DNA of 64,000 nucleotides, taken from Candidatus Fimimorpha faecalis (lineage in GTDB: Bacteria > Bacillota > Clostridia > Lachnospirales > Lachnospiraceae). Position numbers and translations under genes: made by a program. The DNA lies in contig DVHN01000002.1 of the NCBI GenBank assembly GCA_018712075.1, positions 7,222-71,221 on the forward strand, in the 5' to 3' direction. This document shows, in pieces, positions 5,901-19,374 of the stretch (position 1 is the stretch's first letter; the number at the start of each line of letters is the position of its first letter). The notes under the pieces are model-generated. The model saw only the letters and a program-made list of their open reading frames with translations, did not search any database and was not told the origin of the DNA.

Positions 5901-6805
5901 TCTGTATCTACTACATCCTCTGCCAAAATATGACCATTTAAGCGATTTCTAAAATGAAGTTTTTTATTAAATTTATAACGTCCTACCTTCGCCAAATCAT
6001 AACGTCTTGGGTCAAAAAACATACTGTTCAGCAAGCTTGCTGCACTATCTACAGATAATGGCTCACCTGGACGAATCTTTTTATATAATTCCAACAAACC
6101 ATCTTGGTAATTGTCGGACGTATCTTTTTGAATACTTGCCAGAATCTTCGGCTCTTCTCCAAATAAATCAATAATCTCCTGATTGGTTCCCCATCCAAGA
6201 GCACGGATCAGTACGGTAACTGGTACTTTACGAGTACGGTCCACACGTACGAAGAAAATATCATTTGAATCCGTATCATATTCCAACCATGCACCACGGT
6301 TTGGAATTACTTGTGAGGAAAACAGTTTCTTACCAACCTTATCATGAGCAATTGTATAATAGATGCCAGGGGAACGAACCAGCTGGCTTACAATAACTCG
6401 CTCTGCACCATTGATAACAAAAGAACCTGTATCAGTCATTAATGGAAGATCACCCATAAAAATTTCATGATCTTTAATTTCGTCTTTTTCTTTATTATAA
6501 AGCTTCACTTTAACCTTCAGCGGTGCAGCATAGGTTGCATCTCTTTCTTTGCACTCTTCAATTGTATACTTGATTTCATCAGTACAAAGTCGGAAGCCAC
6601 CAAATTCCAAACTTAAATGTCCACTATAATCAGCGATTGGAGAAATATCTTCAAATACTTCTTTTAATCCCTCATCGAGGAACCACTGATAGGAATCTTT
6701 CTGGATTGCAATCAGGTTTGGCATTTCCAATACTTCTTTTTGTCTGGCATAACTCATACGAATGCTTTTTCCTGATTTCACTGGTCGGATTCTGCTTTTT
6801 TCCAT
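2951..6805 (-). CDS. rpoB: DNA-directed RNA polymerase beta subunit (1284 aa) with a highly acidic C-terminal tail
   Basis: Full-length ORF with conserved beta-subunit blocks ([62 protein letters not shown]). ATG at 6805 with SD AGGGGTGA. It sits immediately upstream of rpoC. Confidence 0.98.
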
Positions 6806-6920
6806 TGACGTTTCACCCCTGTTTTTCTATAAAATTGAACGGCATACTTTGCCGTACCATAATCACGTGTTATAGCAAATTATATGCAAAAGCATAATCA
6901 GCCATAATAGTGCATCTACC

Positions 6921-6949
6921 ATAGTAACATATTCAAAATTTACTGTCAA
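6921..6949 (-). promoter_or_regulatory. Sigma-A type promoter for rpoBC (-35 TTGACA, 17-nt spacer, -10 TACTAT)
   Basis: On the minus strand, TTGACA lies at 6949..6944 and TACTAT at 6926..6921, with an exact 17-nt spacer. The -10 element lies about 115 nt upstream of the rpoB ATG. Confidence 0.6.
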
Positions 6950-6978
6950 CCTTTTTTTGAACTTTTTACCAGTATCCA

Positions 6979-8811
6979 TTATTTTTGATACACAATCATC
7001 TGCACTTGAGAATCATTTTTTTCTCCCTCAATTACGCTCTTTTCTTTATCGTGTTCAATTGGCGTTACCGTATTTAAATAAAGTGCTAATTTTGATTCGG
7101 TTTCCCGTGGTTCTATTTTAAATACCACTTCGTATACCTCATCCTTTTCTGTTGGAATTTCTCCAGTAAATAGCTGGATTAACTTACCATCCCACCAACC
7201 AGAAGCATTAAACGACTCAGTATATAGTTCTTTCCCCGTACTCTGCTCTCGCAATGTAACAACTAAATCTACATTATTTGCACGACCATTTGTCATAACA
7301 GGAAACTGAATTTGATCTAATATGCTTCCCTGACTAATAAATGGCTGAACAACTGAATCCTCCTGTTCGGAGAGAATTACCCCACTCGTCCCAGATTTCA
7401 CTTCATAAGTTGGCTGCGTTCCAACTTGGGATGCATAGAGGCAGAGAAAAGCTGGAACCACAAACATAGCCACACCCACCACAAAACGGGTACGAATCCA
7501 TCCCATACAATTCTCCTGTAAAGCAAATGACTCTGCACAGTACTTTGGATGCTTAAACAATGCATAGACAAGCATAATCATAGAAATCATAGAAAGGCAG
7601 ATCATTGGATCTAATTTGCCAATTAGATTTCCCATTGTCAGCTTTGTTCCAATCTCTCCATTCACCATTCCAGCGAAGATTCCATGATTGAACATTGCCT
7701 GATCCACATTGTTTGGTATCATCATAACATTAAAGATAGTAAAGAACATCATAAATAGAATATCAATAATCATAAAGATCTTCGTATCTCTATGAATAAA
7801 TGCACTGATTACCCAGAATGGAACTGCCATCAACAGCCATTGCGGATGCCATTTTGCAAGGCCAAATAATACAAATGACACTAAACAACATAAATATAAC
7901 ATCCATTTTATAAGTTCTTTCTTTTCTTTCACTCTTGTAAAATAAGCTAATGCACAAATAATTCCAAATCCCATAATTACAAGACTCACCGAAAACTGTA
8001 CTGTTCCTAGTTGGAATCCCGTAAATAACGTAGCATTAAAAATATAGCCCGTTGGGTTATCTCCGCTGCTTCCAATTCCAAACGCATAATTGGAAAACGC
8101 TTTGCTTCCTATATATAGTAGAAATTCAATTCCATATGGCACTGCGGCCGCAACACAGCTAAGTATAATTTTCCATACATTTTTCGTTTTTAGTAAAAGC
8201 AATGGTAAAAATATTAACAACGCCGAATATTTAAACGTAATTGCAATTGCAAACCAGAAAATAAAATAAAAATCTTTATTTTTTAGATAGAAGTAAACTC
8301 CAAGCAATATGCAAAGCACCATAAAAATATCATATTGTCCAAAAATAAATTGAGCATAAAATCCAATCGGCATAGTTAAACTTGCATAAGTACAAAGTTT
8401 CGATTTTTTTCTTCCCATTCCAATTTCCATACAAATCCCATAAATTACAAATCCAGAGATCATATATAAAATACATGGAAGCAACTTCGCCCACATAATG
8501 GCAATCAATGGAAGATTTTCCGTTGGAACTGTTACAATGCCTAGAATACGTATTGGAATATTCCAGATTGCAAATAATAAATACATACTTGGCATATAAC
8601 TCGGATGAATTTCAAATTCTCCACAATAATCATAAAAATCTAAAATATGTCCATTCAAATATCCATATGAACATCCAGCCGTATGTAATAGATCATTTTG
8701 TTGGAATGATAAAAAACAGATGCCTGCCAATATTAAAAAAATCAAATAATCCCAAAAACAGAGTTCTTTCCAAGTTTTGAAAAATCCCACTGTCTTTTTC
8801 TTTTCTCTCAT
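6979..8811 (-). CDS. Polytopic membrane protein, tentatively a GT-C-fold glycosyltransferase (ArnT/PMT/YfhO-like) with a C-terminal extracytoplasmic domain of about 140 aa
   Basis: 610 aa with about 13 hydrophobic segments. The first loop after TM1 contains an acidic DFYDY motif, and the soluble beta-rich C-terminal tail begins after residue ~470. ATG with SD GGAGGA. It is the last gene of the glycan operon. The family call is by architecture only. Confidence 0.55.
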   Translation of the reverse strand: MREKKKTVGFFKTWKELCFWDYLIFLILAGICFLSFQQNDLLHTAGCSYGYLNGHILDFYDYCGEFEIHPSYMPSMYLLFAIWNIPIRILGIVTVPTENLPLIAIMWAKLLPCILYMISGFVIYGICMEIGMGRKKSKLCTYASLTMPIGFYAQFIFGQYDIFMVLCILLGVYFYLKNKDFYFIFWFAIAITFKYSALLIFLPLLLLKTKNVWKIILSCVAAAVPYGIEFLLYIGSKAFSNYAFGIGSSGDNPTGYIFNATLFTGFQLGTVQFSVSLVIMGFGIICALAYFTRVKEKKELIKWMLYLCCLVSFVLFGLAKWHPQWLLMAVPFWVISAFIHRDTKIFMIIDILFMMFFTIFNVMMIPNNVDQAMFNHGIFAGMVNGEIGTKLTMGNLIGKLDPMICLSMISMIMLVYALFKHPKYCAESFALQENCMGWIRTRFVVGVAMFVVPAFLCLYASQVGTQPTYEVKSGTSGVILSEQEDSVVQPFISQGSILDQIQFPVMTNGRANNVDLVVTLREQSTGKELYTESFNASGWWDGKLIQLFTGEIPTEKDEVYEVVFKIEPRETESKLALYLNTVTPIEHDKEKSVIEGEKNDSQVQMIVYQK

Positions 8812-8842
8812 AGGTTTCCTCCATTATCATATTGTATTTAAA

Positions 8843-10060
8843 TTAATCCATTGTTTCTTTTTTCAATGCATAAAATCCCAATCCAGTTATAATGGCAAAT
8901 TTTAGAATATTAATAAGCAAAAGTCCAATTGCCATTCCCCAAAGTCCCCACACAAGCATAAATGGTACAATAATCGCAACAAACAATACGGTATAAATGG
9001 TCCCTATATAAATCTGATATTTTTCTGTTGCAAATCGCAGCACAACAACCATCATTGTGTTAGAAAGAAAGAAAAACACCTGTCCCGCATTGGCAATCCA
9101 AAATAACTTGCTTGCTGCTTCCACCACTTGTGAATTATAGAGAAATGGAATAATAATATAAGATCCTAATACACTTCCACATGTAAAGACAATTGCACAT
9201 GCCAGCAAAATTACCATTACTCCAGCAAACATTTTTCTTGTGATTTTTCCTTTATATCGAGACAAATGACCAATGATTACGCCATTCAGCGGAGTAGACA
9301 ATAGAGAAACCATCTTTCCCAAAAGTGTAGCCACATAAAATATTGTCGATGCTTCGTCTCCATTGACGATAAATAACGGAATCATTACACGATCTGCATA
9401 CGAAACAAAATCCGACATCAAATAGGCAGATGACAGATTCCACATTACTTTTGTGTTTTCCACAAAATGAGAAGAACGCTTAAAAAAGGGAGGATTAAAA
9501 ATAGTACCAACTACAGCAACATAAATCAAGCCAAAACATTCTCCGATAATAAAAATCATTGCCCAAGAGGATGTCCATCGATACACCAATACTCCTACTA
9601 CGTATCCAATTGTAACTAAAATATAGTACCAGAAAAACCGTTTATAGTTTAAATCCAATCGAAATTGTACATCGGCATAATAACGCAAGACCGTCACAAT
9701 AATTAAAATTGCAATGGTTACAACGGATGCTCCTGCACTATTTCTTTTAATTGTTGCTGCAATAATTGTCACAATAACTGCAATTCCTGCAACGGCAAGC
9801 AAAAACCAATTATAATCTCCATTTTGAGAATGCCTTATGGTAGAAATTTTCATACGGGCATAATTTGCTCCTGAACCAAATGCAGAAGCCATCAATCCCA
9901 TAATCGCCGTAAAAAATAAAACTTGTCCATTGGCTTCGTTTCCAAGTGTTCGATTAATAAACGGATAAACCAAAAAAGTAATTACGCCATTCAATGCTAC
10001 TAATGCAGCCGTACCATACAAAAAATCCAGTGCAAATCGTTTTATAGAGTCAAATTTCAT
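8843..10060 (-). CDS. Wzx-like (MOP/PST superfamily) polysaccharide or lipid-linked sugar flippase
   Basis: 405 aa with about 12 TM segments. The N-terminus (LNGVITFLVYPFINRTLGNEANGQV) is typical of PST-family polysaccharide biosynthesis proteins. SD GGAGGA. Located within the glycan operon. Confidence 0.65.
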   Translation of the reverse strand: MKFDSIKRFALDFLYGTAALVALNGVITFLVYPFINRTLGNEANGQVLFFTAIMGLMASAFGSGANYARMKISTIRHSQNGDYNWFLLAVAGIAVIVTIIAATIKRNSAGASVVTIAILIIVTVLRYYADVQFRLDLNYKRFFWYYILVTIGYVVGVLVYRWTSSWAMIFIIGECFGLIYVAVVGTIFNPPFFKRSSHFVENTKVMWNLSSAYLMSDFVSYADRVMIPLFIVNGDEASTIFYVATLLGKMVSLLSTPLNGVIIGHLSRYKGKITRKMFAGVMVILLACAIVFTCGSVLGSYIIIPFLYNSQVVEAASKLFWIANAGQVFFFLSNTMMVVVLRFATEKYQIYIGTIYTVLFVAIIVPFMLVWGLWGMAIGLLLINILKFAIITGLGFYALKKETMD

Positions 10061-10091
10061 GTTTTCCTCCTAATATCATATCTGCCACATC

Positions 10092-10961
10092 CTACTTTTT
10101 TTCTTGATACCATATTTTTACATAATCTGGATTACAATGTGTATTTACTCTTTTTTCCTCTGGAGGAAGCTGCATATAATCACCATAAATCGTCTTCAAT
10201 GCTCGATGCCATCCCTTTGGAGCAGGAAGTTCTACTCCATTCAATGTAACAGGAACTGTTTCTGCAAACCATCTTTTATCATAGATAAGCGCCACATCCT
10301 GAATCAAAAAATTCCCATAGAAACAGCGGTGCTTCTTTTTATTTTTTCCAGTTCCCATACGAGATGCCTTATCATACCATTGTATAATTTTTTCTGATGG
10401 AATATGTTTTCCAATCCCAGACAGAATTTTAACTACAAATCTAGATAGTCCGTTATAGTCATTCATATCCAATTGATAACGATGTCCCATTCCCAATCCA
10501 TAACAGACCAAAATTAATGCTCTGGAAAGCAAATGCATCCAGTTACAGTCGTTCACATCATCAATAATAAAAATATCTACCGATACATGATTATTCATTC
10601 CATTGCCATAAAACTTCTGTTCTTCATCTTCTGGCTGAATCTGAGAATCCAATAAAATAATTCGAGGCACAAAATCAAAAATTGCATTATTCCCCAGATC
10701 TTTTGGCTCCACATAAGCAAATCCAGGTGCTAATTCTTCTCTTACTACTTTTCTAAATTTTTCGAATTCACTGCGGAGCATTGCTGTGTCTGCATCATCA
10801 TCCCATGGGATTGCGGCCTTATGACGAATCGCTCCTAAAAGCGTTCCGCTTTCAATATAAAACATAATATGATGTTTTTTACAAATTCGCTCCATCTCTT
10901 TCATAATAATAATATGTGCGGCGTGAACCTGATCAATCGCCTTTTGCACTTCCTCTGTCAT
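10092..10961 (-). CDS. LicD-family phosphotransferase
   Basis: 289 aa containing the LicD signature block GTLLGAIRHKAAIPWDDDADTAM. The ATG at 10961 overlaps the GT2 stop by 29 nt, suggesting translational coupling. Confidence 0.85.
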   Translation of the reverse strand: MTEEVQKAIDQVHAAHIIIMKEMERICKKHHIMFYIESGTLLGAIRHKAAIPWDDDADTAMLRSEFEKFRKVVREELAPGFAYVEPKDLGNNAIFDFVPRIILLDSQIQPEDEEQKFYGNGMNNHVSVDIFIIDDVNDCNWMHLLSRALILVCYGLGMGHRYQLDMNDYNGLSRFVVKILSGIGKHIPSEKIIQWYDKASRMGTGKNKKKHRCFYGNFLIQDVALIYDKRWFAETVPVTLNGVELPAPKGWHRALKTIYGDYMQLPPEEKRVNTHCNPDYVKIWYQEKK

Positions 10962-11913
10962 CTGCTGTTTCCTCTCTTTCTGGAAAATTAATACGTTCTT
11001 CCTCCACTACAAGCGGACGACGCATCGTACGTGCATTAATACTTAATACATACTCTCCAATTAATCCAATAAAAAATAGCTGAATGGAACCTAACACAAA
11101 CATTCCAATTAAAACAGGCGCCATACCTGCTGCAAATCGATCCCAATAGATTAATTTCATTACTAAATATATAATTGCAATCAAAATACTTACTACGCTA
11201 CTAAACATTCCAAGCAATGTCGCAATCCGAAGCCCTACTTTTGTATATGACGTTACACTCAACATTGCCGCATCAAACAAACGATAAAAATTATTGCTTG
11301 TTTTTCCTGCACGGCGTTGTGGCTGGGTATATTCAATTTCTTTTCTGCGGAATCCCAGCTCTGCTACAATTCCACGCAAAAATGGAGTAGGATCATCTAA
11401 GTTTTGCAATACTTGGATAAACTTTTTATCATAAAGGCCAAACCCTGTGAAATGCTCAATTTGTTCTACATCGGAAAGTTTTTTAATCATCCGATAATAA
11501 CAGCTTCGCAAGAAATACATAATCTTGCTTTCTTTACTCTTCGTCTTAATACCAATTACAATTTTATATCCTTCTTCCCATCCATCCACAAATGGACGAA
11601 TCATTTCAACTGGATCTTGAAAATCCGCTGCCATTAAAATTGCACAGTCTCCAGTCGCCTGTAATAATCCATAATAAGGGGAATTAAACTGCCCAAAATT
11701 TTTGGCATTAAAAATAGCCCGAATACGGGGATTTTTTTCACAAAGTCTTCTTAAATATTCCCTTGTCCGATCTTTGGAGTCATTATCAATAAAAATTATT
11801 TCATAATTGTATTCTGGGAGTTTCTTTTCAAACTCCTGAATAATTGCCTCACTCAACGGTATTACATTCTCTTCTTCATTGTAACAAGGTACTACAATAC
11901 TTACTGTTTTCAT
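10933..11913 (-). CDS. GT2 polyprenyl-phosphate glycosyltransferase (GtrB/CsbB/ArnC-like)
   Basis: 326 aa. The N-terminus VSIVVPCYNEEENV and the DNDSKD (DxD-type) motif match GT-A family 2. Two C-terminal TM helices (VGLRIATLLGMF..., MAPVLIGMFVLGSIQLFFIGLIGEY) are typical of the bactoprenol-P glycosyltransferase subgroup. Confidence 0.85.
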   Translation of the reverse strand: MKTVSIVVPCYNEEENVIPLSEAIIQEFEKKLPEYNYEIIFIDNDSKDRTREYLRRLCEKNPRIRAIFNAKNFGQFNSPYYGLLQATGDCAILMAADFQDPVEMIRPFVDGWEEGYKIVIGIKTKSKESKIMYFLRSCYYRMIKKLSDVEQIEHFTGFGLYDKKFIQVLQNLDDPTPFLRGIVAELGFRRKEIEYTQPQRRAGKTSNNFYRLFDAAMLSVTSYTKVGLRIATLLGMFSSVVSILIAIIYLVMKLIYWDRFAAGMAPVLIGMFVLGSIQLFFIGLIGEYVLSINARTMRRPLVVEEERINFPEREETADDRGSAKGD

Positions 11914-11915
11914 TC

Positions 11916-12848
11916 CTACCTCTTTCTACACCATTGAACTGTTCTTTGAATTCCTTCTTCAAAAGAAACTTCTGGAACAAATCCAGTATCTTTTGTCAAT
12001 GTCTCAATATCTGCCTGTAAATACATAACCTGTCCTTCTGGATACGGGACTTCTCCCAAACCAATCGAGGCTTTTGGATCTACTGCATCTCTGATTGCTA
12101 AAATATACTCCCGTAGTGGTCGTACCATTCCGCTTCCAACACAATAAATTGCCTGATCTCTTCCTTTGCATCCAGCCAAATACAAGGCTCTTGCTGCATC
12201 TTCGGAATACAAATAATCCCATTTCTGTTCTCCCTTTGTATAAACTGGACGTTCTCCTCTCAATAATTTATATATTCCAGACATTACCATCGTATATTCC
12301 TGATCCATTGGTCCATAGACACTTAAAATTCTCGCCCATATATGGCGAATTCCTAACTGCTTACATAAATTTCGGCTCATTTGTCCAGCACAGAGTTTTC
12401 CAATTCCATAACCAGTTTCTGGAAAAGTTGGAGTATTTGGTGAAATTCTATCCCTGCACTTCCCGTATTCTGCCTGAGATCCAGCCCCTACAAACACTTC
12501 ACAGCCCAACTTATGGGCTAAGTGGACTGCATCCAATGTATTTTTTACATTTCTATTTTGCAAATATAGATCTTGTCTGCTCGATCCATAAGTGCCTTCC
12601 CATCCTAAATGAAAAAATGCGTCTGCTTTGGAAGGCAATTTTTCCATCTGCTGCATGAAATCATCCAAATGAGATAACTCTGCATCCACCAAATGTAATT
12701 TTTCATTTTTGGATAAGTTTCTTATTCGGGCAGAAGAGCGCCTTACAAGCGCCCACACTTCTGCTCCTTCTTTTAATAATACTTGTACAAGAGTTGCTCC
12801 AATCATTCCCGTTGCTCCAGTCAGCACTGCACGAGTTATTTTTTCCAT
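11916..12848 (-). CDS. NAD(P)-dependent epimerase/dehydratase-family SDR, candidate sugar 4-keto or side-chain reductase (YerF/RfbS/RfbJ-like)
   Basis: 310 aa with the Rossmann motif TGATGMIGATL near the N-terminus and a YxxxK-type block (YGIGK). Its stop lies 2 nt from the GT2 start. Confidence 0.8.
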   Translation of the reverse strand: MEKITRAVLTGATGMIGATLVQVLLKEGAEVWALVRRSSARIRNLSKNEKLHLVDAELSHLDDFMQQMEKLPSKADAFFHLGWEGTYGSSRQDLYLQNRNVKNTLDAVHLAHKLGCEVFVGAGSQAEYGKCRDRISPNTPTFPETGYGIGKLCAGQMSRNLCKQLGIRHIWARILSVYGPMDQEYTMVMSGIYKLLRGERPVYTKGEQKWDYLYSEDAARALYLAGCKGRDQAIYCVGSGMVRPLREYILAIRDAVDPKASIGLGEVPYPEGQVMYLQADIETLTKDTGFVPEVSFEEGIQRTVQWCRKR

Positions 12849-12888
12849 AATATTCTCCTAAACAAAAAGAATAGCCTTAACCGTCTTA

Positions 12889-14709
12889 TCACTCATCTAC
12901 AAGAGGAATAAACATATTCTTTTTCAATTCCTCTTTACTTAAAAACGGAGCTAAGTCTTCCAATGGAGCTGACACTAATGTTCCATCTTCCAGACGTTTT
13001 GTAGCAGACTTTGGTTCAAAATTCTGCTCGGTATCTACAAAAATCTCACAAATAGCAGGTCCCTTTTTTGCAAGTGTTTTACTTACTGCCCCATCTAAGT
13101 CTCGGTTATGGTGTACTGCTGTATAAGCAATTCCATATGCCCACGCTAATTTCTCCATATCTGGAAAGCTTAAATCTCCACTGTCTGCTCCAATTCCTAC
13201 GAATGGCCTTTGGAAAAAGTTACGCTGTGTCTGTCGGATGGAATGATATCCACAATTATTAATAAGGAAAATTTTAATTGGCATTTGATGATGAACAATT
13301 GTCTGCAATTCCTGCAAATTCATCTGAATGCTTCCTTCTCCTGTCACACAAATTAATTCCTGACCTTCACATGCCATCGCTGCTCCAATTACCGCTGGTA
13401 AATCATAACCCATGGAAGCAATTGCAGAGTTAATGATAAATCGTTGATTCTTTTTTATAATATAACTTTGACTTCCAACGACACAGGCAGATCCATTGCC
13501 AACTACCGTTACCTGTCCTTCTGGCAGTTTACTACTAATGGCATAAATTGCCGCATATACATTGGCATATCCATTGTCCTGATTCAAATGTTTTGGCTGC
13601 AATACCGGATAATCTTTCTTCCAATTCTGGCATACCGTAATCCAATCCTGATTCTGGAACAATTTTCCTTCTGGCAAACGTGCATCTAACTTCGTTAATA
13701 AGTCTTTTGCATCTGCCCAAATTGGCATATCTACATGGATCGTTGGTTTTTTTAATTCTTCGGAATCAATATCATTCACAATTACGTACGCTTCTCTTGC
13801 CCAAGTTTCATGATTAAATCCAACTTGCCGAATGCTAAGACGATTGCCAACTGCTAAAACTAAATCACTGTTTTGTACCGCAAAATTTCCAGCACGATCT
13901 CCCATACCGCCTGCTCTTCCAGTATACAGAGGATGATCTGTCTCAATTTCATCGATTCCATCCCATGTTGTAACAACTGGAATATTCATTTTCTCTACAA
14001 CAGAACGAAATTCTTGATATCCTCCTGAAATACGAATTCCATTTCCAGCATAAAATACTGGCCGCTTTGCCTGACGAATTTTCTCAATAATACAATCTAT
14101 GGTTTCCTCTTTTACCGCAGGAGGCAGCTCTTTTTTATAATCTTCTTCTGGAATATATCCCTCCAATTGTTCGGTTTCAATATAACTTCCCTGCACATTT
14201 AATGGAATATCCAGCCAGCATGGACCTGGACGGCCGTGTTTTGCAATATACATTGCCTTTTCCAAACAGTATTTAATCTTGTTTGGATCAATTACCATTT
14301 CACAATACTTGGTCATAGAATCTACTGCTTTGCAAATATCAAATTCCTGGTCTCCTACTGCCCGAAGGTTCAATCCAGTATAACGTGCCGTCGTATCGTA
14401 ACGAACCTGTCCCGATATTACAAGCATCGGAATGGAATCCAAATAGGCACCTACCACACCAGTCAATGCGTTGGTTCCCCCTGGCCCTGTTGTGACACAG
14501 AGCAAAGCCATTTTATTTTCCATTCTTGCATAGCTTTCTGCTGCAATTGCACATGCCTGTTCATGATGCTGGTATAAACATTTCAATCCCTCTTGATGTC
14601 CAAATGCATCATTCAAATGCATCGCTCCCCCGCCAGTTACTGTAAAAACATTGGTAATCCCATGTTCTACTAAAAACTGAGCAATATAATTCGACAATTT
14701 TATCCTCAT
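12889..14709 (-). CDS. Thiamine-diphosphate-dependent enzyme of the acetolactate synthase/YerE type
   Basis: 606 aa. N-terminal ThDP pyrimidine-binding region (GITNVFTVTGGGAMHLNDA, TGPGGTNALTGV) and a C-terminal GEGSIQMNLQEL ... NNCGY block (GDG-x-N-type ThDP/Mg motif). It lies between rfbH and the SDR. Confidence 0.85.
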   Translation of the reverse strand: MRIKLSNYIAQFLVEHGITNVFTVTGGGAMHLNDAFGHQEGLKCLYQHHEQACAIAAESYARMENKMALLCVTTGPGGTNALTGVVGAYLDSIPMLVISGQVRYDTTARYTGLNLRAVGDQEFDICKAVDSMTKYCEMVIDPNKIKYCLEKAMYIAKHGRPGPCWLDIPLNVQGSYIETEQLEGYIPEEDYKKELPPAVKEETIDCIIEKIRQAKRPVFYAGNGIRISGGYQEFRSVVEKMNIPVVTTWDGIDEIETDHPLYTGRAGGMGDRAGNFAVQNSDLVLAVGNRLSIRQVGFNHETWAREAYVIVNDIDSEELKKPTIHVDMPIWADAKDLLTKLDARLPEGKLFQNQDWITVCQNWKKDYPVLQPKHLNQDNGYANVYAAIYAISSKLPEGQVTVVGNGSACVVGSQSYIIKKNQRFIINSAIASMGYDLPAVIGAAMACEGQELICVTGEGSIQMNLQELQTIVHHQMPIKIFLINNCGYHSIRQTQRNFFQRPFVGIGADSGDLSFPDMEKLAWAYGIAYTAVHHNRDLDGAVSKTLAKKGPAICEIFVDTEQNFEPKSATKRLEDGTLVSAPLEDLAPFLSKEELKKNMFIPLVDE

Positions 14710-14728
14710 ATGATTACTCCCTTTTCTA

Positions 14729-16063
14729 TTACAGAGCCTCTTTTATTACTTTTGCCATATAGTCAATTTTTTCATCCGTCATACCTGGATATACGCCAAC
14801 CCAGAACGTATGATTCATAATACGATCGGTATTTTCCAGACTTCCTACTACTCGGTATCCTTCTCCTGACGCTCTCATTTGGTCAAAACATGGATGTTTG
14901 ATTAGATTACCCGAAAACAGCATACGTGTCTGAACTCCTCGCTGTTCCACATATTGTACTACTTTGTTACGGTCTACTCCTTCTTTACAAGTAATTAAAA
15001 ATCCAAACCAGCTTGGGGTAGAATTTGGACAAGCCTCTGGTAAAATTAACTTATCTTGACAATCTTCCAATGCAGCTCTTAAACGATTAAAGTTATGAAT
15101 TCTGCGCTCTACAAATGTTGGGAATTTCTTAATCTGAGCACATCCAATCGCAGCCTGCATATCCGTTGCCTTTAAATTATATCCAAAATGAGAATATACA
15201 TATTTATGATCGTATCCAATTGGTAATTCTCCATACTGTCTGTCAAAACGATGTCCACAAAGATTATCTCGTCCAGAAGGGCATACACAGTCTCGTCCCC
15301 AATCTCGGAATGAACGAATAATACGGTTTAAAAGCGGATTTTTTGTATAAACTGCTCCGCCTTCTCCCATCGTCATATGATGCGGAGGATAAAAACTAGA
15401 AGTTCCAATATCTCCAATCGTACCTGTGAATCGTTCTTCTCCATTGATTCTATATTTGGAACCAAGTGCATCACAGTTGTCTTCGATTAACCAAAGGTTA
15501 TGCTTATCACAAAATTGCTTTACCGCTTCCAAATCAAATGGATTACCAAGTGTATGTGCAATCATTACGGCTTTTGTTTTTTCTGAATAAGCTGCTTCTA
15601 ATTTTGTAACATCAATATTATATTGAGGGATTGTAACGTCCACAAACACTGGAACTGCTCCGTATTGAATGACTGGAGTAATCGTAGTCGGAAAACCCGC
15701 AGCGACCGTAATTACTTCGTCTCCTCGTTTTATCTGACGTTCCCCAAGTAAAGGAGAGGTTAATGTCATAAAAGCCACTAAATTTGCAGAAGAACCAGAA
15801 TTTACAAGGGCACAAAATGGTATATTCAAATACTGTGCAAATGCTTTTTCAAATTGATCCGTATAACGTCCAGCTGTCAGCCAAAATTCCAATGAACTAT
15901 CTACTAAATTTACCATTTCTTCATGGTCATAAACACGAGAAGCATAAGGAATTCTCTGTCCTTCTTCAAAAGGTTTTTCCTGATTATGATATTTATCACA
16001 ATATTCTGAAACCATGGAGAGAATTTGTTCTCTCGCTTCTTTTTCACTCATCTGTTCAAACAT
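14729..16063 (-). CDS. rfbH: CDP-4-keto-6-deoxy-D-glucose 3-dehydrase (E1; RfbH/DdhC/AscC family)
   Basis: 444 aa of DegT/DnrJ/EryC1 fold. SSFYPPHHMTMGEGG carries His-His where aminotransferases of this fold have the Schiff-base Lys, which is the hallmark of E1 dehydrases. It follows rfbF and rfbG. Confidence 0.85.
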   Translation of the reverse strand: MFEQMSEKEAREQILSMVSEYCDKYHNQEKPFEEGQRIPYASRVYDHEEMVNLVDSSLEFWLTAGRYTDQFEKAFAQYLNIPFCALVNSGSSANLVAFMTLTSPLLGERQIKRGDEVITVAAGFPTTITPVIQYGAVPVFVDVTIPQYNIDVTKLEAAYSEKTKAVMIAHTLGNPFDLEAVKQFCDKHNLWLIEDNCDALGSKYRINGEERFTGTIGDIGTSSFYPPHHMTMGEGGAVYTKNPLLNRIIRSFRDWGRDCVCPSGRDNLCGHRFDRQYGELPIGYDHKYVYSHFGYNLKATDMQAAIGCAQIKKFPTFVERRIHNFNRLRAALEDCQDKLILPEACPNSTPSWFGFLITCKEGVDRNKVVQYVEQRGVQTRMLFSGNLIKHPCFDQMRASGEGYRVVGSLENTDRIMNHTFWVGVYPGMTDEKIDYMAKVIKEAL

Positions 16064-16092
16064 TTTTTACCTTTACTCCTTTATTTCCTAAT

Positions 16093-17142
16093 CTATGCTA
16101 AAAATGATTTGATTTGTTCTTCCATACATGCAGCAACATCACCATTTTCTAACCATATCTTGGACCACTCTACCGTCTTTTGAACTGCCGTTTTTACATC
16201 CCATGTTGGTTTCCATCCAAATATATGTTTTACACGAGAACAGTCCAACTTTAGAAAGTTCGCTTCATGCGGGCCTCCATCCCAATGACTTTCCCAAGTC
16301 ATTCCATCTCCCCAAGATTCACAAAACAAATCGACCAGATTTCCTGTCGTCAAACAGTCTTTATCATCTGGACCTACATTATAATATCCCGCAAAATCAC
16401 TCGTTTCATACTGTTTCTGTACAATTGTAAGATATAACATCAATGGTTCCAATACATGCTGATACGGTCTGACGGAATGTGGATTTCTTACAATCATTGG
16501 CTGATTTGACGCAGCTGCCCGAACGCAGTCTGGAATAATACGATCCACAGCAAAATCTCCTCCTCCAATAACATTTCCTGCCCGTGCCGTTGAAACGGCT
16601 GGCATCCCATCCTTAAAGAAAGATAATTTATAACTATGTGTCACTAATTCCGAGCAGGATTTACTGTTAGAGTATGGATCATATCCATCTAACGGATCGT
16701 CTTCTCGATATCCCCATTCCCATTCTCTATTATAATATACTTTATCCGTGGTAACATTTAAGACAGAACGAACGCAAGGATGTAACCGTACCGCTTCCAG
16801 TAAGTGAACCGTTCCCATTACATTCGTCTCATAAGTTTCCAGCGGATCACGATACGATTGTCTTACAATCGGCTGCGCTGCCAAATGTATCACAATCTCA
16901 GGCTGTACCTGATCAAATACCTGCATAAGATGTTCAAAATCTCGAATATCTCCAATGATTGAATTTATTTTCTTTTCAATTCCTGAAAGCGTAAATAGAT
17001 TTGGGTCAGTTGGAGGCTTTAAAGAATAACCTGTTACAATTGCACCTGCATCGGATAAAATCTTACAAAGCCAAGATCCTTTAAAACCAGTATGCCCTGT
17101 TACAAGTATATTTTTATCTTTGAAAAAATTCAAATCTAACAT
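16093..17142 (-). CDS. rfbG: CDP-glucose 4,6-dehydratase
   Basis: Contains NILVTGHTGFKGSWL and a YSNSK catalytic block. I moved the start to the ATG at 17142 (MLDLNFF...), which has the SD GGAGG 5 nt upstream. The ORF-track start at 17193 would overlap rfbF. Confidence 0.9.
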   Translation of the reverse strand: MLDLNFFKDKNILVTGHTGFKGSWLCKILSDAGAIVTGYSLKPPTDPNLFTLSGIEKKINSIIGDIRDFEHLMQVFDQVQPEIVIHLAAQPIVRQSYRDPLETYETNVMGTVHLLEAVRLHPCVRSVLNVTTDKVYYNREWEWGYREDDPLDGYDPYSNSKSCSELVTHSYKLSFFKDGMPAVSTARAGNVIGGGDFAVDRIIPDCVRAAASNQPMIVRNPHSVRPYQHVLEPLMLYLTIVQKQYETSDFAGYYNVGPDDKDCLTTGNLVDLFCESWGDGMTWESHWDGGPHEANFLKLDCSRVKHIFGWKPTWDVKTAVQKTVEWSKIWLENGDVAACMEEQIKSFLA

Positions 17143-17164
17143 AAGATCCTCCATTCTTTTTTTC

Positions 17165-17944
17165 TTAATCATTCCAAACCTTCCATGGCGCACAATTGGA
17201 CTGCCACATTTCTTCTAAACTTTTCTTATCTCTTTGCGTATCCATACATTTCCAGAATCCTTTATGATAATACGCCATCAACTGTCCATCTCTTGCCAGA
17301 TTTTCCAACGGTTCTTTTTCAAATACTGTTTGATCTCCTTCAATATAATCAAACACTTCTGGATTCATGACCATATATCCGCCATTAATCATACTTCCAT
17401 CTTCATCATTTTTTTCACGGAAAGATTCAATTTGTCCTTCTTCGTTAATATCAATTACTCCAAAACGCTGCCCGATATTCACCGTTGTAATCGTTGCAAT
17501 TTTCCCATGCTTTTTATGGAATTCTGCCAGAGCCCGAATATCAATATCCGCAACTCCATCTCCATATGTAAGCATAAAGGTTTCATTTCCTACATAGTCT
17601 TTAATACGCTTTACTCTTCCTCCAGTCATTGTATTGAGACCTGTATCCACCAATGTAACCTTCCATGGTTCTGAAAAATTATTATGCACAATCATTTTAT
17701 TGTTTGCAAGATCAAATGTAATATCCGATGTATGCAAAAAATAATCTGAGAAAAATTCTTTTACTAAATGTTGTTTATATCCGAGACAAATGATAAACTC
17801 ATTAAATCCATAATGAGAATATTCTTTCATAATATGCCATAAAATCGGTCTTTCTCCAATTTCAATCATTGGTTTTGGCTTTAGATGACTTTCTTCACTA
17901 ATCCTCGTTCCAAACCCACCTGCTAGTATTACAACTTTCATCAT
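17165..17944 (-). CDS. rfbF: Glucose-1-phosphate cytidylyltransferase
   Basis: 259 aa. VVILAGGFGTRISEESHLKPKPMIEIGERPILWHIMK and the C-terminal FWKCMDTQRDK block are characteristic of RfbF/DdhA. It is the first gene of the operon. Confidence 0.93.
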   Translation of the reverse strand: MMKVVILAGGFGTRISEESHLKPKPMIEIGERPILWHIMKEYSHYGFNEFIICLGYKQHLVKEFFSDYFLHTSDITFDLANNKMIVHNNFSEPWKVTLVDTGLNTMTGGRVKRIKDYVGNETFMLTYGDGVADIDIRALAEFHKKHGKIATITTVNIGQRFGVIDINEEGQIESFREKNDEDGSMINGGYMVMNPEVFDYIEGDQTVFEKEPLENLARDGQLMAYYHKGFWKCMDTQRDKKSLEEMWQSNCAPWKVWND

Positions 17945-17994
17945 TATTTCCTTTCTCGTCTTAATCCAATCTCATAGCTTTGCTATGATCTTTT

Positions 17995-18023: not shown

Positions 18024-18153
18024 CCCTTTCCCAAGAACCTTTGCATTTTTCTATATTTTTAATATTTATTTAAAAAATCCTTCATAATATTGTAAGGAGT
18101 CCGTATTCGCAATTCAGGCAAATCCCTTAGCTGTCCGTCTATTGACGACACTT

Positions 18154-19374
18154 TTATAGTAAATACTTTTCAATATCAGGAAAAACTTTCAAACTTCTTT
18201 TTAAAATTCCATGAATATAGGCTATCATAATCCCATAATTCGTAATTGGTGTCTGCTGATCCATTGCAGATTGTTGACGATATTTCATTTCCTTTTCATT
18301 TAACATACAGCCCCCACAATGCACAATCATAGCATAACTTGTCACATCTTCTGGAAATTCTGTTCCTGATGAGAAGGAAAAATTCAACTTCTTTTTTGTA
18401 TAATTCCGAATCCATGCAGGCAATTTTTCCGTTCCAATGTCTCCACATTGTCTATGATGGGTACATCCTTCCGAAATCAAAACCGTATCTCCATCTTTTA
18501 ATGTTTCAATTGCCACGGCTCCTTTCACTGCCTGTTCTAAGTTTCCCTTATGACGCGCAAATAAAATGGAAAATGAAGTAAGTAAAATATCCTCTGGAGT
18601 CATCTGAGACACTTGACCAAATGCCTGACTGTCGGTAATTACAAGTTTTGGTTTTTTACTCAGACCAGCCAGCGTTTCTTTTAGTTCTGTTGGCTGGCAG
18701 ACTACCGCAACTGCTCCAGATTCTAAAATTTCTCGAATGGTTTGCTGCTGTGGTAAAATTAATCGTCCTTTTGGAGCAGCTGCATCAATTGGAATCACTA
18801 ATACAACAAAATCTCCCCCCTCGATTAAATCTTGTACAATTGGGAAATGAGGTTTCTCTTTTCCTGCCAGACGTCCAATCATCTCTTTTAATTCATAAAT
18901 GTTTTCCTTGGTTAATGCACTAACTGCAATTTTATTTTGAATGGACGTATCCTCTTTTATTTTTTCTGTCAAATCTGCTAAATCCGATTTATTGTACACA
19001 ACAATATATGGAAGTTGTTTTTGTTCAAATAATTGAATTAATTCCCGATCTTCTGGCATAATCCCTAATTGGGCATCCACAATTAAAACAGCCACATCGG
19101 TTTTATTTAATACTTGTTTTGTACGTTTCACACGCAAACTGCCTAGTTCTCCCTCATCGTCAATGCCAGGTGTATCAATAATTACAACTGGACCAATTGG
19201 AAGCAATTCCATTGCCTTTTGCACAGGGTCAGTAGTTGTTCCCTTTGTATCTGATACAATTGCTAAATTTTGCCCCGTCACTGCATTTACTACGCTGGAC
19301 TTTCCAGCATTTCTCTTTCCAAAAAATCCAATATGAACTCGATTTCCGCTTGGAATCTGATTTAAATTTGCCAT
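18154..19374 (-). CDS. hydF: [FeFe]-hydrogenase H-cluster maturation GTPase HydF
   Basis: 406 aa. P-loop GKRNAGKSS, a DTPG motif, and the C-terminal cluster ligands CTHH...HCGGC (the CxH...HCxxC pattern). Confidence 0.92.
   Translation of the reverse strand: MANLNQIPSGNRVHIGFFGKRNAGKSSVVNAVTGQNLAIVSDTKGTTTDPVQKAMELLPIGPVVIIDTPGIDDEGELGSLRVKRTKQVLNKTDVAVLIVDAQLGIMPEDRELIQLFEQKQLPYIVVYNKSDLADLTEKIKEDTSIQNKIAVSALTKENIYELKEMIGRLAGKEKPHFPIVQDLIEGGDFVVLVIPIDAAAPKGRLILPQQQTIREILESGAVAVVCQPTELKETLAGLSKKPKLVITDSQAFGQVSQMTPEDILLTSFSILFARHKGNLEQAVKGAVAIETLKDGDTVLISEGCTHHRQCGDIGTEKLPAWIRNYTKKKLNFSFSSGTEFPEDVTSYAMIVHCGGCMLNEKEMKYRQQSAMDQQTPITNYGIMIAYIHGILKRSLKVFPDIEKYLL

Follow-up and report, generated by a model that had tools for sequence, protein, structure and literature searches.

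The window analyzed here, a 64,000-nucleotide stretch of the Candidatus Fimimorpha faecalis assembly GCA_018712075.1 (contig DVHN01000002.1, positions 7,222 to 71,221 of the forward strand), carries on its minus strand a gene for a thiamine diphosphate (ThDP)-dependent enzyme of 606 residues (12889–14709, in window coordinates). The gene belongs to a run of nine on the same strand, in the order rfbF, rfbG, rfbH, the ThDP gene, a short-chain dehydrogenase/reductase (SDR) gene, a family 2 glycosyltransferase (GT2) gene, a LicD gene, and the genes for a 405- and a 610-residue membrane protein, followed by rpoB; hydF, hydG, and hydE lie upstream of rfbF. A preliminary description of this DNA proposed that the ThDP enzyme and the SDR follow the logic of YerE and YerF, adding a two-carbon unit from pyruvate to a cytidine diphosphate (CDP)-linked sugar and reducing the product. 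The geometry on which it built, a 606-residue ThDP protein encoded 19 nucleotides after rfbH and 40 nucleotides before the SDR gene, agrees exactly with the listing of open reading frames (ORFs). The analysis presented below indicates that this protein is most likely a nucleotide-sugar-branching ThDP carboligase and not an acetolactate synthase of amino acid metabolism, and it places the protein closer to the characterized enzyme JanthE than to YerE itself.

The three genes preceding the ThDP gene are those of CDP-dideoxyhexose synthesis. The first, rfbF (ddhA; 17165–17944, minus strand like all genes described here), encodes a glucose-1-phosphate cytidylyltransferase, which makes CDP-glucose (TIGR02623, 410.6 bits against a cut-off of 300), and rfbG (ddhB; 16093–17193) encodes a CDP-glucose 4,6-dehydratase, which forms CDP-4-keto-6-deoxyglucose (TIGR02622, 444.7 bits against 278). 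The third, rfbH (ddhC; 14729–16063), encodes an E1-type CDP-4-keto-6-deoxyglucose 3-dehydrase, dependent on pyridoxamine phosphate and a [2Fe-2S] cluster (NF011936, 732.8 bits against 423). In RfbH, a His-His pair at residues 228 and 229 replaces the Schiff-base lysine of aminotransferases, and four cysteines are arranged as Cys197-x61-Cys259-x-Cys261-x7-Cys269, a C-x61-C-x-C-x7-C spacing that we take to be the E1 iron-sulfur motif. On the other side of the ThDP gene, the SDR (11916–12848) is an extended member of its family of 310 residues, with matches to Pfam Epimerase (132 bits) and GDP_Man_Dehyd and with its cofactor and catalytic motifs intact (GxxGxxG at residues 11–17, Y147xxxK). Its predicted function, like that of YerF, is to reduce the carbonyl of the branch; a search of the Protein Data Bank (PDB) returned no close solved relative.

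The N-terminal, middle, and C-terminal domains of the ThDP protein match PF02776, PF00205, and PF02775 with E values of 1e-32 to 1e-34. Its best NCBIfam matches are models of acetohydroxyacid synthase (AHAS), all of them below cut-off: the TIGR00118 score is 351 bits against a cut-off of 538, and every other AHAS model lies far under its own threshold. Catabolic acetolactate synthases in the PDB reach only about 100–117 bits against the protein, and a tblastn search of 72,556 plasmid records returned annotated ilvB, ilvG, and ilvI only, at no more than 33% identity. The true ilvB of the genome is found on another contig, where it scores 762 bits and adjoins an ilvD-like ORF. As the preliminary description had noted, no ilv gene lies near the ThDP gene. 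No gene for a small regulatory subunit is found there either, and its immediate neighbors are rfbH and the SDR gene, whereas the named AHAS genes taken for comparison adjoin ilvM or ACT-subunit genes, ilvD, or ilvC. The description had counted firm clustering with acetolactate synthases as speaking against its proposal; on a maximum-likelihood tree, the protein instead falls among 47 family rows that are split from six AHAS sequences (the genome's own IlvB, three named enzymes, and two from Proteobacteria) by a branch with 100% support in the Shimodaira–Hasegawa-like approximate likelihood ratio test (SH-aLRT).

The best solved relative is JanthE (PDB: 8rph, 8rpi, and 8rpj), a characterized "YerE-like" ThDP enzyme from Janthinobacterium sp. 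HH01 for which the coupling of 2-oxo acids with ketones is described (PMC12188165, PMC12247030). Residues 2–599 of the window protein align with residues 6–600 of JanthE at 435.6 bits (E = 2.4e-129), compared with at most 237 bits for AHAS. With a profile of 27 family sequences, the separation is wider, at 729 bits for JanthE against 441–455 bits for AHAS and PpYerE. A search of 1.84 billion representative sequences gave at least 150 clusters at 50% identity, and those listed all score at least 394 bits. One of these clusters (P0212) matches JanthE at 1060 bits; its sequence, included in the tree as the representative of JanthE, nests inside the family. PDB entry 5ahk, which we take to be PpYerE following Hampel et al. 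(2018), scores 237.4 bits against the window protein, next to 232.2 bits for E. coli AHAS I, and 454.7 against 440.9 bits with the family profile. The proxy for YerE proper was PpYerE, whose identity to the Yersinia enzyme is 59% (PMC8541089); because it is no closer to the window protein than AHAS is, the window protein is not a YerE orthologue. The YerE/YerF-type logic initially proposed finds support in the family placement and the conserved synteny, and orthology to YerE does not. Judged by sequence, the window protein sits in a JanthE-type subfamily, for which "YerE-like" appears valid as the name of a functional class and not of a line of descent.

Within the ThDP fold, the catalytic Glu50 is invariant, and the cofactor motif G457-E458-G459...N484-N485 is present. 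The motif opens with GEG (residues 457–459, window positions 13333–13341) in place of the canonical GDG, with glutamate substituting for the metal-binding aspartate. Of 158 aligned family members, 14 share this variant, as do seven of the 80 named relatives, which are the 80 best matches of a contig scan (loci L058–L137). A relative 88% identical to the window protein has GDG, and JanthE has CDG; hence, this position looks unusually tolerant in the family. A second distinguishing feature is a C-terminal tail of about 40 residues (566–606, window positions 12892–13014), in which a Pro-Lys pair containing Lys567 is kept in 79 of the 80 relatives and is followed by DG...S.PLED..P. Other alignments do not reach this tail, that of PpYerE stopping at residue 566 and most of those with AHAS at about residues 561–567. 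The counterpart of Lys567 in JanthE, K567, is a hotspot for ketone acceptance, and its removal raises activity on artificial ketones (PMC12188165). In the window protein, Lys567 may bind the diphosphate of the CDP-sugar.

The resemblance to JanthE, an enzyme studied as a biocatalyst, thus spans the full-length alignment, the three-domain layout, the tail (PK...DG..VS.PLED..P) with its lysine at 567, and a noncanonical residue in the GDG motif. The two proteins differ in that residue, CDG in JanthE and GEG here, and JanthE residues Y268, P293, and V121, discussed in PMC12188165, are replaced by Met, Arg, and Asp, respectively, as counted from the alignment. The family also includes fusion proteins (P0145, P0150, P0161, P0192, P0259, P0156, and P0213). 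Five of them carry an N-terminal extension of about 205–265 residues, with a cupin domain in two cases, one of these below the Pfam cut-off; one of the others ends in a haloacid dehalogenase (HAD) phosphatase and one in a methyltransferase.

The association of the ThDP gene with CDP-sugar genes is widespread. At a threshold of E 1e-100 or better, a homologue is encoded in 35 of 301 genomes sampled from the order of the window, including 14 of 31 from the same family, and in 17–18 of 20 loci widened to 20 kb, rfbF lies within 10 kb, accompanied in most by rfbG and rfbH. The 80 named loci come mostly from Lachnospiraceae, Oscillospiraceae, and other Clostridia, with members outside this class in Treponema, a Legionellaceae metagenome-assembled genome (MAG), a Gammaproteobacteria MAG, and Sulfurirhabdus, at about 50–56% identity. 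Homologues of the window genes recur in them with graded frequency: SDR in 63, GT2 in 56, rfbH in 45, rfbG in 37, rfbF in 36, and LicD, the 405-residue protein, and the 610-residue protein in five each. The SDR homologue directly follows the ThDP gene in about 60 loci, and rfbH, where kept, usually stands directly before it. Because gene order varies across the loci, the linkage speaks for functional coupling more than for common descent alone. Many families, and some other phyla, show the ThDP–SDR pair in linkage with CDP-hexose genes. In a sample of 400 Gammaproteobacteria genomes, 11 have RfbH, and two of these 11 have a ThDP gene within 10 kb. JanthE is the only strong PDB match for one of the two (L158), and the protein of the other (L157) is 43% identical to the window protein; a YerE-proper sequence was not recovered from this 400-genome sample.

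Several variations on this arrangement were also observed. In one genus of the window's family (L044, L046, L047, and L051), rfbF abuts the ThDP gene, and neither rfbG nor rfbH is found within 10 kb. The homologues at L015, L017, L023, L024, and L035 each contain a single in-frame TGA or TAA, which could reflect a pseudogene, a sequencing error, or recoding. Different families share near-identical ThDP genes, with end branches of about 0.1, as at L089 (Desulfosporosinus sp. BG) and L097 (Gemmiger formicilis An723, of simple architecture), and Clostridia-like copies are found in bins labeled otherwise, namely, L067 and L088 (Bacteroides/Bacteroidaceae) and L108 (Treponema). These occurrences point to either recent horizontal transfer or mis-binned or contaminated contigs.

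Clustering and annotation of the neighboring genes resolve three architectures among the 80 loci. The simple architecture, to which the window belongs, consists of rfbFGH, in some cases GtrA, the ThDP gene, SDR, and GT2 (30 loci). A second contains a sugar C-methyltransferase (18 loci), and a third an aldolase (23 loci; HMGL-like in 17 and HpcH-type in six), often together with a dehydroquinate (DHQ)-synthase-like protein and a short SDR. The C-methyltransferase loci (L062, L063, L064 of Lachnospiraceae bacterium AM48-27BH, L070 of Clostridium sp. AT4, and about 14 more) have the additional enzyme inserted after the SDR; six of the 18, including L062, also carry a Zn-dependent alcohol dehydrogenase, and in many, none of the three rfb genes lies within 10 kb. 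L062, a near relative from an Acetatifactor MAG, has the same nine genes as the window with the C-methyltransferase and the alcohol dehydrogenase placed between SDR and GT2. The module of a DHQ-synthase-like protein and a short classical SDR lies by the ThDP gene in 12 loci (L102, L108, L111, L113, L116, L119, L123, L125–L127, L129, and L137), all of which except L127 also have an aldolase of the HMGL-like or HpcH type; some have an FGGY kinase or a HAD phosphatase as well. By its appearance, the module could be a so far undescribed way of making the donor of a longer branch.

These architectures bear on which 2-oxo acid the window enzyme would use. On a tree of 81 enzymes, the window protein falls in a subclade of 24 rows (SH-aLRT 89) made up of itself, five members of simple architecture, 17 with the methyltransferase, and one unclassified; no aldolase-linked member is found in it. 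Pfam and NCBIfam searches of the nine-gene operon gave no aldolase, NeuB-like, or other keto-acid-forming gene, and no donor-making gene was detected within 7 kb in the 23 other subclade members. Because operon and subclade lack such a gene, pyruvate is the most economical donor, and a pyruvate-derived two-carbon branch is plausible on this argument from absence. No alignment column was found that separates simple from aldolase-linked enzymes, and thus the donor is not predicted from the protein sequence; JanthE and MyGE are described as accepting donors from C3 to C8 (PMC9306805, PMC12247030).

A pathway of this kind is already known, and nothing in the window operon is conceptually new. In Yersinia pseudotuberculosis O:VI, YerE and YerF make yersiniose A from the product of DdhA–D, with the same succession of CDP-glucose genes, E1, ThDP enzyme, and reductase (PMC9306805). 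The window operon likewise has no donor-making gene, which fits pyruvate as in the YerE system. The two differ in that the window protein is not an orthologue of YerE, in that no DdhD (E3) is encoded here, and in that the host is a Gram-positive-type Clostridia bacterium and not an O-antigen producer. The systems for erwiniose (ErwE, ErwF, ErwI, and ErwJ of Pectobacterium atrosepticum) and for caryophyllose and gastriose (MMAR_2332 and MyGE), compared here by their published descriptions, similarly unite, within surface-glycan clusters, a ThDP carboligase with a reductase, with CDP-4-keto-3,6-dideoxyglucose as the substrate (PMC9306805). Each of those systems also has an aldolase gene, whose product assembles a long, hydroxylated 2-oxo acid as the donor; the window operon and its subclade have none, and it is the 23 aldolase-linked relatives that match this logic (PMC9306805). 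As far as it is summarized in PMC12247030, an in silico survey has counted more than 200 YerE-like clusters.

The remaining four genes of the operon suggest how the sugar might reach the cell surface. The GT2 (10933–11913; PF00535, with two C-terminal transmembrane helices) is a candidate for the GtrB/ArnC/PgfS type and is predicted to transfer a sugar to polyprenyl phosphate, with scores under the curated cut-offs of the PgfS (186 bits against 500) and ArnC (112 against 529) models. The LicD-family phosphotransferase (10092–10961; PF04991, 91.8 bits) starts 29 nucleotides inside the GT2 frame, the two genes overlapping at 10933–10961. LicD enzymes use CDP-activated donors, and since the only CDP-activated compound arising from the operon is the sugar itself, transfer of a sugar phosphate by LicD is conceivable. 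The 405-residue polytopic membrane protein (8843–10060), with about nine transmembrane helices, had no match in Pfam or NCBIfam searches; its language-model neighbors in the ESM Atlas are named flippase or polysaccharide-biosynthesis proteins, a lead only, by which it is possibly a Wzx-like flippase. The 610-residue membrane protein (6979–8811), with at least 11 transmembrane helices, is GT-C-like (GT87, 31.8 bits against a cut-off of 25; EpsG, 26.7 bits, under its cut-off) and is predicted to be an extracytoplasmic transferase.

Together, the GT2, the 405-residue protein, and the 610-residue protein suggest a route by GtrB, flippase, and GT-C transferase to a wall polymer or surface protein. 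They resemble the three-component lipid-carrier glycosylation systems (GtrA/GtrB/GtrC; CsbB/GtcA/YfhO; PgfS/PgfM) in combining a GT2 with a transmembrane tail, a polytopic protein, and a large GT-C-like protein, and GtrA genes are present in seven related loci. The known systems use UDP-sugars, whereas the donor here would be a CDP-sugar, and the flippase assignment remains a lead. A CDP-sugar donor for a GtrB-type transferase was not found in the literature searched. Upstream of the operon, a consensus scan of the hydF–rfbF gap identified a promoter-like site, ATGACA-17-TAAAAT with an extended TG (18023–17995, minus strand); this is only a pattern match, and the region as a whole has no more sites of this kind than shuffled sequence does.

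Near-identical DNA is present in chicken-gut and fecal metagenomes and in six metatranscriptome runs from three studies. Contigs from four RNA libraries cover the whole operon, and one of these, 11,151 nucleotides long, spans positions 6796–17946, reaching from near the start of rfbF to shortly beyond the final gene. These contigs are compatible with transcription, and the depth of the RNA libraries is not usable for ranking expression. In each of four RNA-library runs compared, there are other contigs that diverge from the window exactly at the ends of the operon, at about 6789–6830, just before rpoB, and 18120–18163, inside the hydF–rfbF gap. Co-occurring strains may have another cassette in the interval from hydF to rpoB or lack one there, which would make the locus a strain-variable glycan island.

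From these assignments, a complete route can be proposed. RfbF would supply CDP-glucose, which RfbG would convert to CDP-4-keto-6-deoxyglucose, and RfbH (E1) would then strip the 3-hydroxyl to give CDP-4-keto-3,6-dideoxyglucose, the predicted acceptor, with electrons presumably drawn from a general ferredoxin- or flavodoxin-type donor. The ThDP enzyme would decarboxylate a 2-oxo acid, most likely pyruvate, and add the acyl-anion equivalent to the C-4 carbonyl, yielding a tertiary alcohol with an acetyl branch. Reduction of the branch carbonyl by the adjacent SDR would lead to a CDP-yersiniose-like sugar, a 4-C-(1-hydroxyethyl)-3,6-dideoxyhexose whose branch length and stereochemistry are likewise predictions. 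The GtrB/ArnC-like GT2 would load this sugar onto undecaprenyl phosphate, the membrane protein would flip it, and the GT-C-like protein would attach it to its putative final acceptor, a wall polymer or surface protein.

We put the probability of this whole route to a CDP-yersiniose-like surface sugar at roughly 0.6, and several observations weigh against it. The ThDP protein lies outside the clade of YerE proper, so that specificity for pyruvate is not transferable by orthology. On the family tree, linkage to an aldolase changes at least 10 times, which makes the choice of donor look labile, and the donors of relatives differ widely, ErwE rejecting pyruvate and JanthE taking C3 to C6 compounds (PMC9306805, PMC12247030). 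The 3-deoxygenation step has no canonical E3 partner: in the 99.95%-complete genome, no E3/DdhD-like reductase was found, PF00970 (FAD_binding_6) having no match and PF00175 (NAD_binding_1) only three small ones, in open frames of 257–311 residues, and no E3-type reductase appears among the recurrent neighbor families of the 80 loci. A pattern combining a plant-type ferredoxin with the RxYS (FNR) motif, run without a positive control, matched no protein in the genome or in any locus, including the proteobacterial ones. The RNA-library contigs do not prove transcription because DNA carry-over is possible. Finally, no branched dideoxyhexose from Clostridia or Gram-positive walls was found in a literature search that left most subscription journals outside its reach, which is weak evidence of absence.

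The alternatives follow from the same observations. Without an E3, the E1 of the whole group must use a general electron donor, or else the branch might be added to a sugar that retains its 3-hydroxyl, either CDP-4-keto-6-deoxyglucose or an E1-bound shunt product, to give a branched 6-deoxyhexose. Three loci (L116, L134, and L137) have rfbF, rfbG, the ThDP gene, and SDR without rfbH, from which it is evident that a 4-keto-6-deoxy acceptor is within the reach of the family. In the window, however, rfbH is intact, scores at equivalog level, and keeps its iron-sulfur cysteines and His signature. Its retention in more than half of the named loci, typically abutting the ThDP gene, speaks in the same direction. 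Moreover, SpnQ, an E3-less E1 homologue, works with cellular ferredoxin or flavodoxin systems, and we consider an acceptor with its 3-hydroxyl improbable. Less easily set aside, although still unlikely in our judgment, is the same reaction with a donor other than pyruvate, such as 2-oxobutyrate, hydroxypyruvate, or a compound made elsewhere in the genome, by which the branch would not be the hydroxyethyl group of yersiniose. The very different donor ranges of the characterized members (PMC9306805, PMC12247030), the aldolase genes beside 23 of the 80 relatives, and the lack of a discriminating alignment column favor such a donor, but neither the nine-gene operon nor the 7-kb surroundings of any of the 23 other subclade members offer a gene to make it. 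The database names of cluster members ("acetolactate synthase large subunit") and the top NCBIfam matches would suggest a ThDP enzyme of ordinary metabolism, such as a glyoxylate carboligase or a synthase of acetolactate or acetoin, whose gene simply happens to adjoin glycan genes. The scores under every AHAS cut-off, the neighborhood free of small-subunit and ilv genes with the true ilvB elsewhere, the separation from AHAS on the tree, the linkage to CDP-sugar genes across phyla, and the family-specific tail with its conserved lysine render it very improbable. Hence, we retain the JanthE-type carboligase acting on CDP-4-keto-3,6-dideoxyglucose, with pyruvate as the probable donor.

The window protein and thousands of its metagenomic relatives are named "acetolactate synthase" or "thiamine pyrophosphate-binding protein," and such names mislead metabolic reconstructions of gut Clostridia. 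For biocatalysis, in which YerE-like enzymes are sought for the synthesis of chiral tertiary alcohols (PMC12247030), the family offers many natural variants, including the GEG-motif enzymes. More broadly, and with slightly less than even odds, many gut Lachnospiraceae and Oscillospiraceae may decorate their Gram-positive-type envelopes with C-branched 3,6-dideoxyhexoses that are made by an E3-independent E1 and a JanthE-type carboligase and exported on a lipid carrier, loaded by a GtrB-like GT2 with a CDP-sugar as its donor. As parts of Gram-negative O-antigens, 3,6-dideoxy sugars and branched sugars act as strong antigenic determinants. That 35 of 301 sampled genomes of the order have the pathway, and in more than one architecture, suggests an unexplored diversity of surface glycans in gut commensals, which could bear on recognition by phages and by the host.

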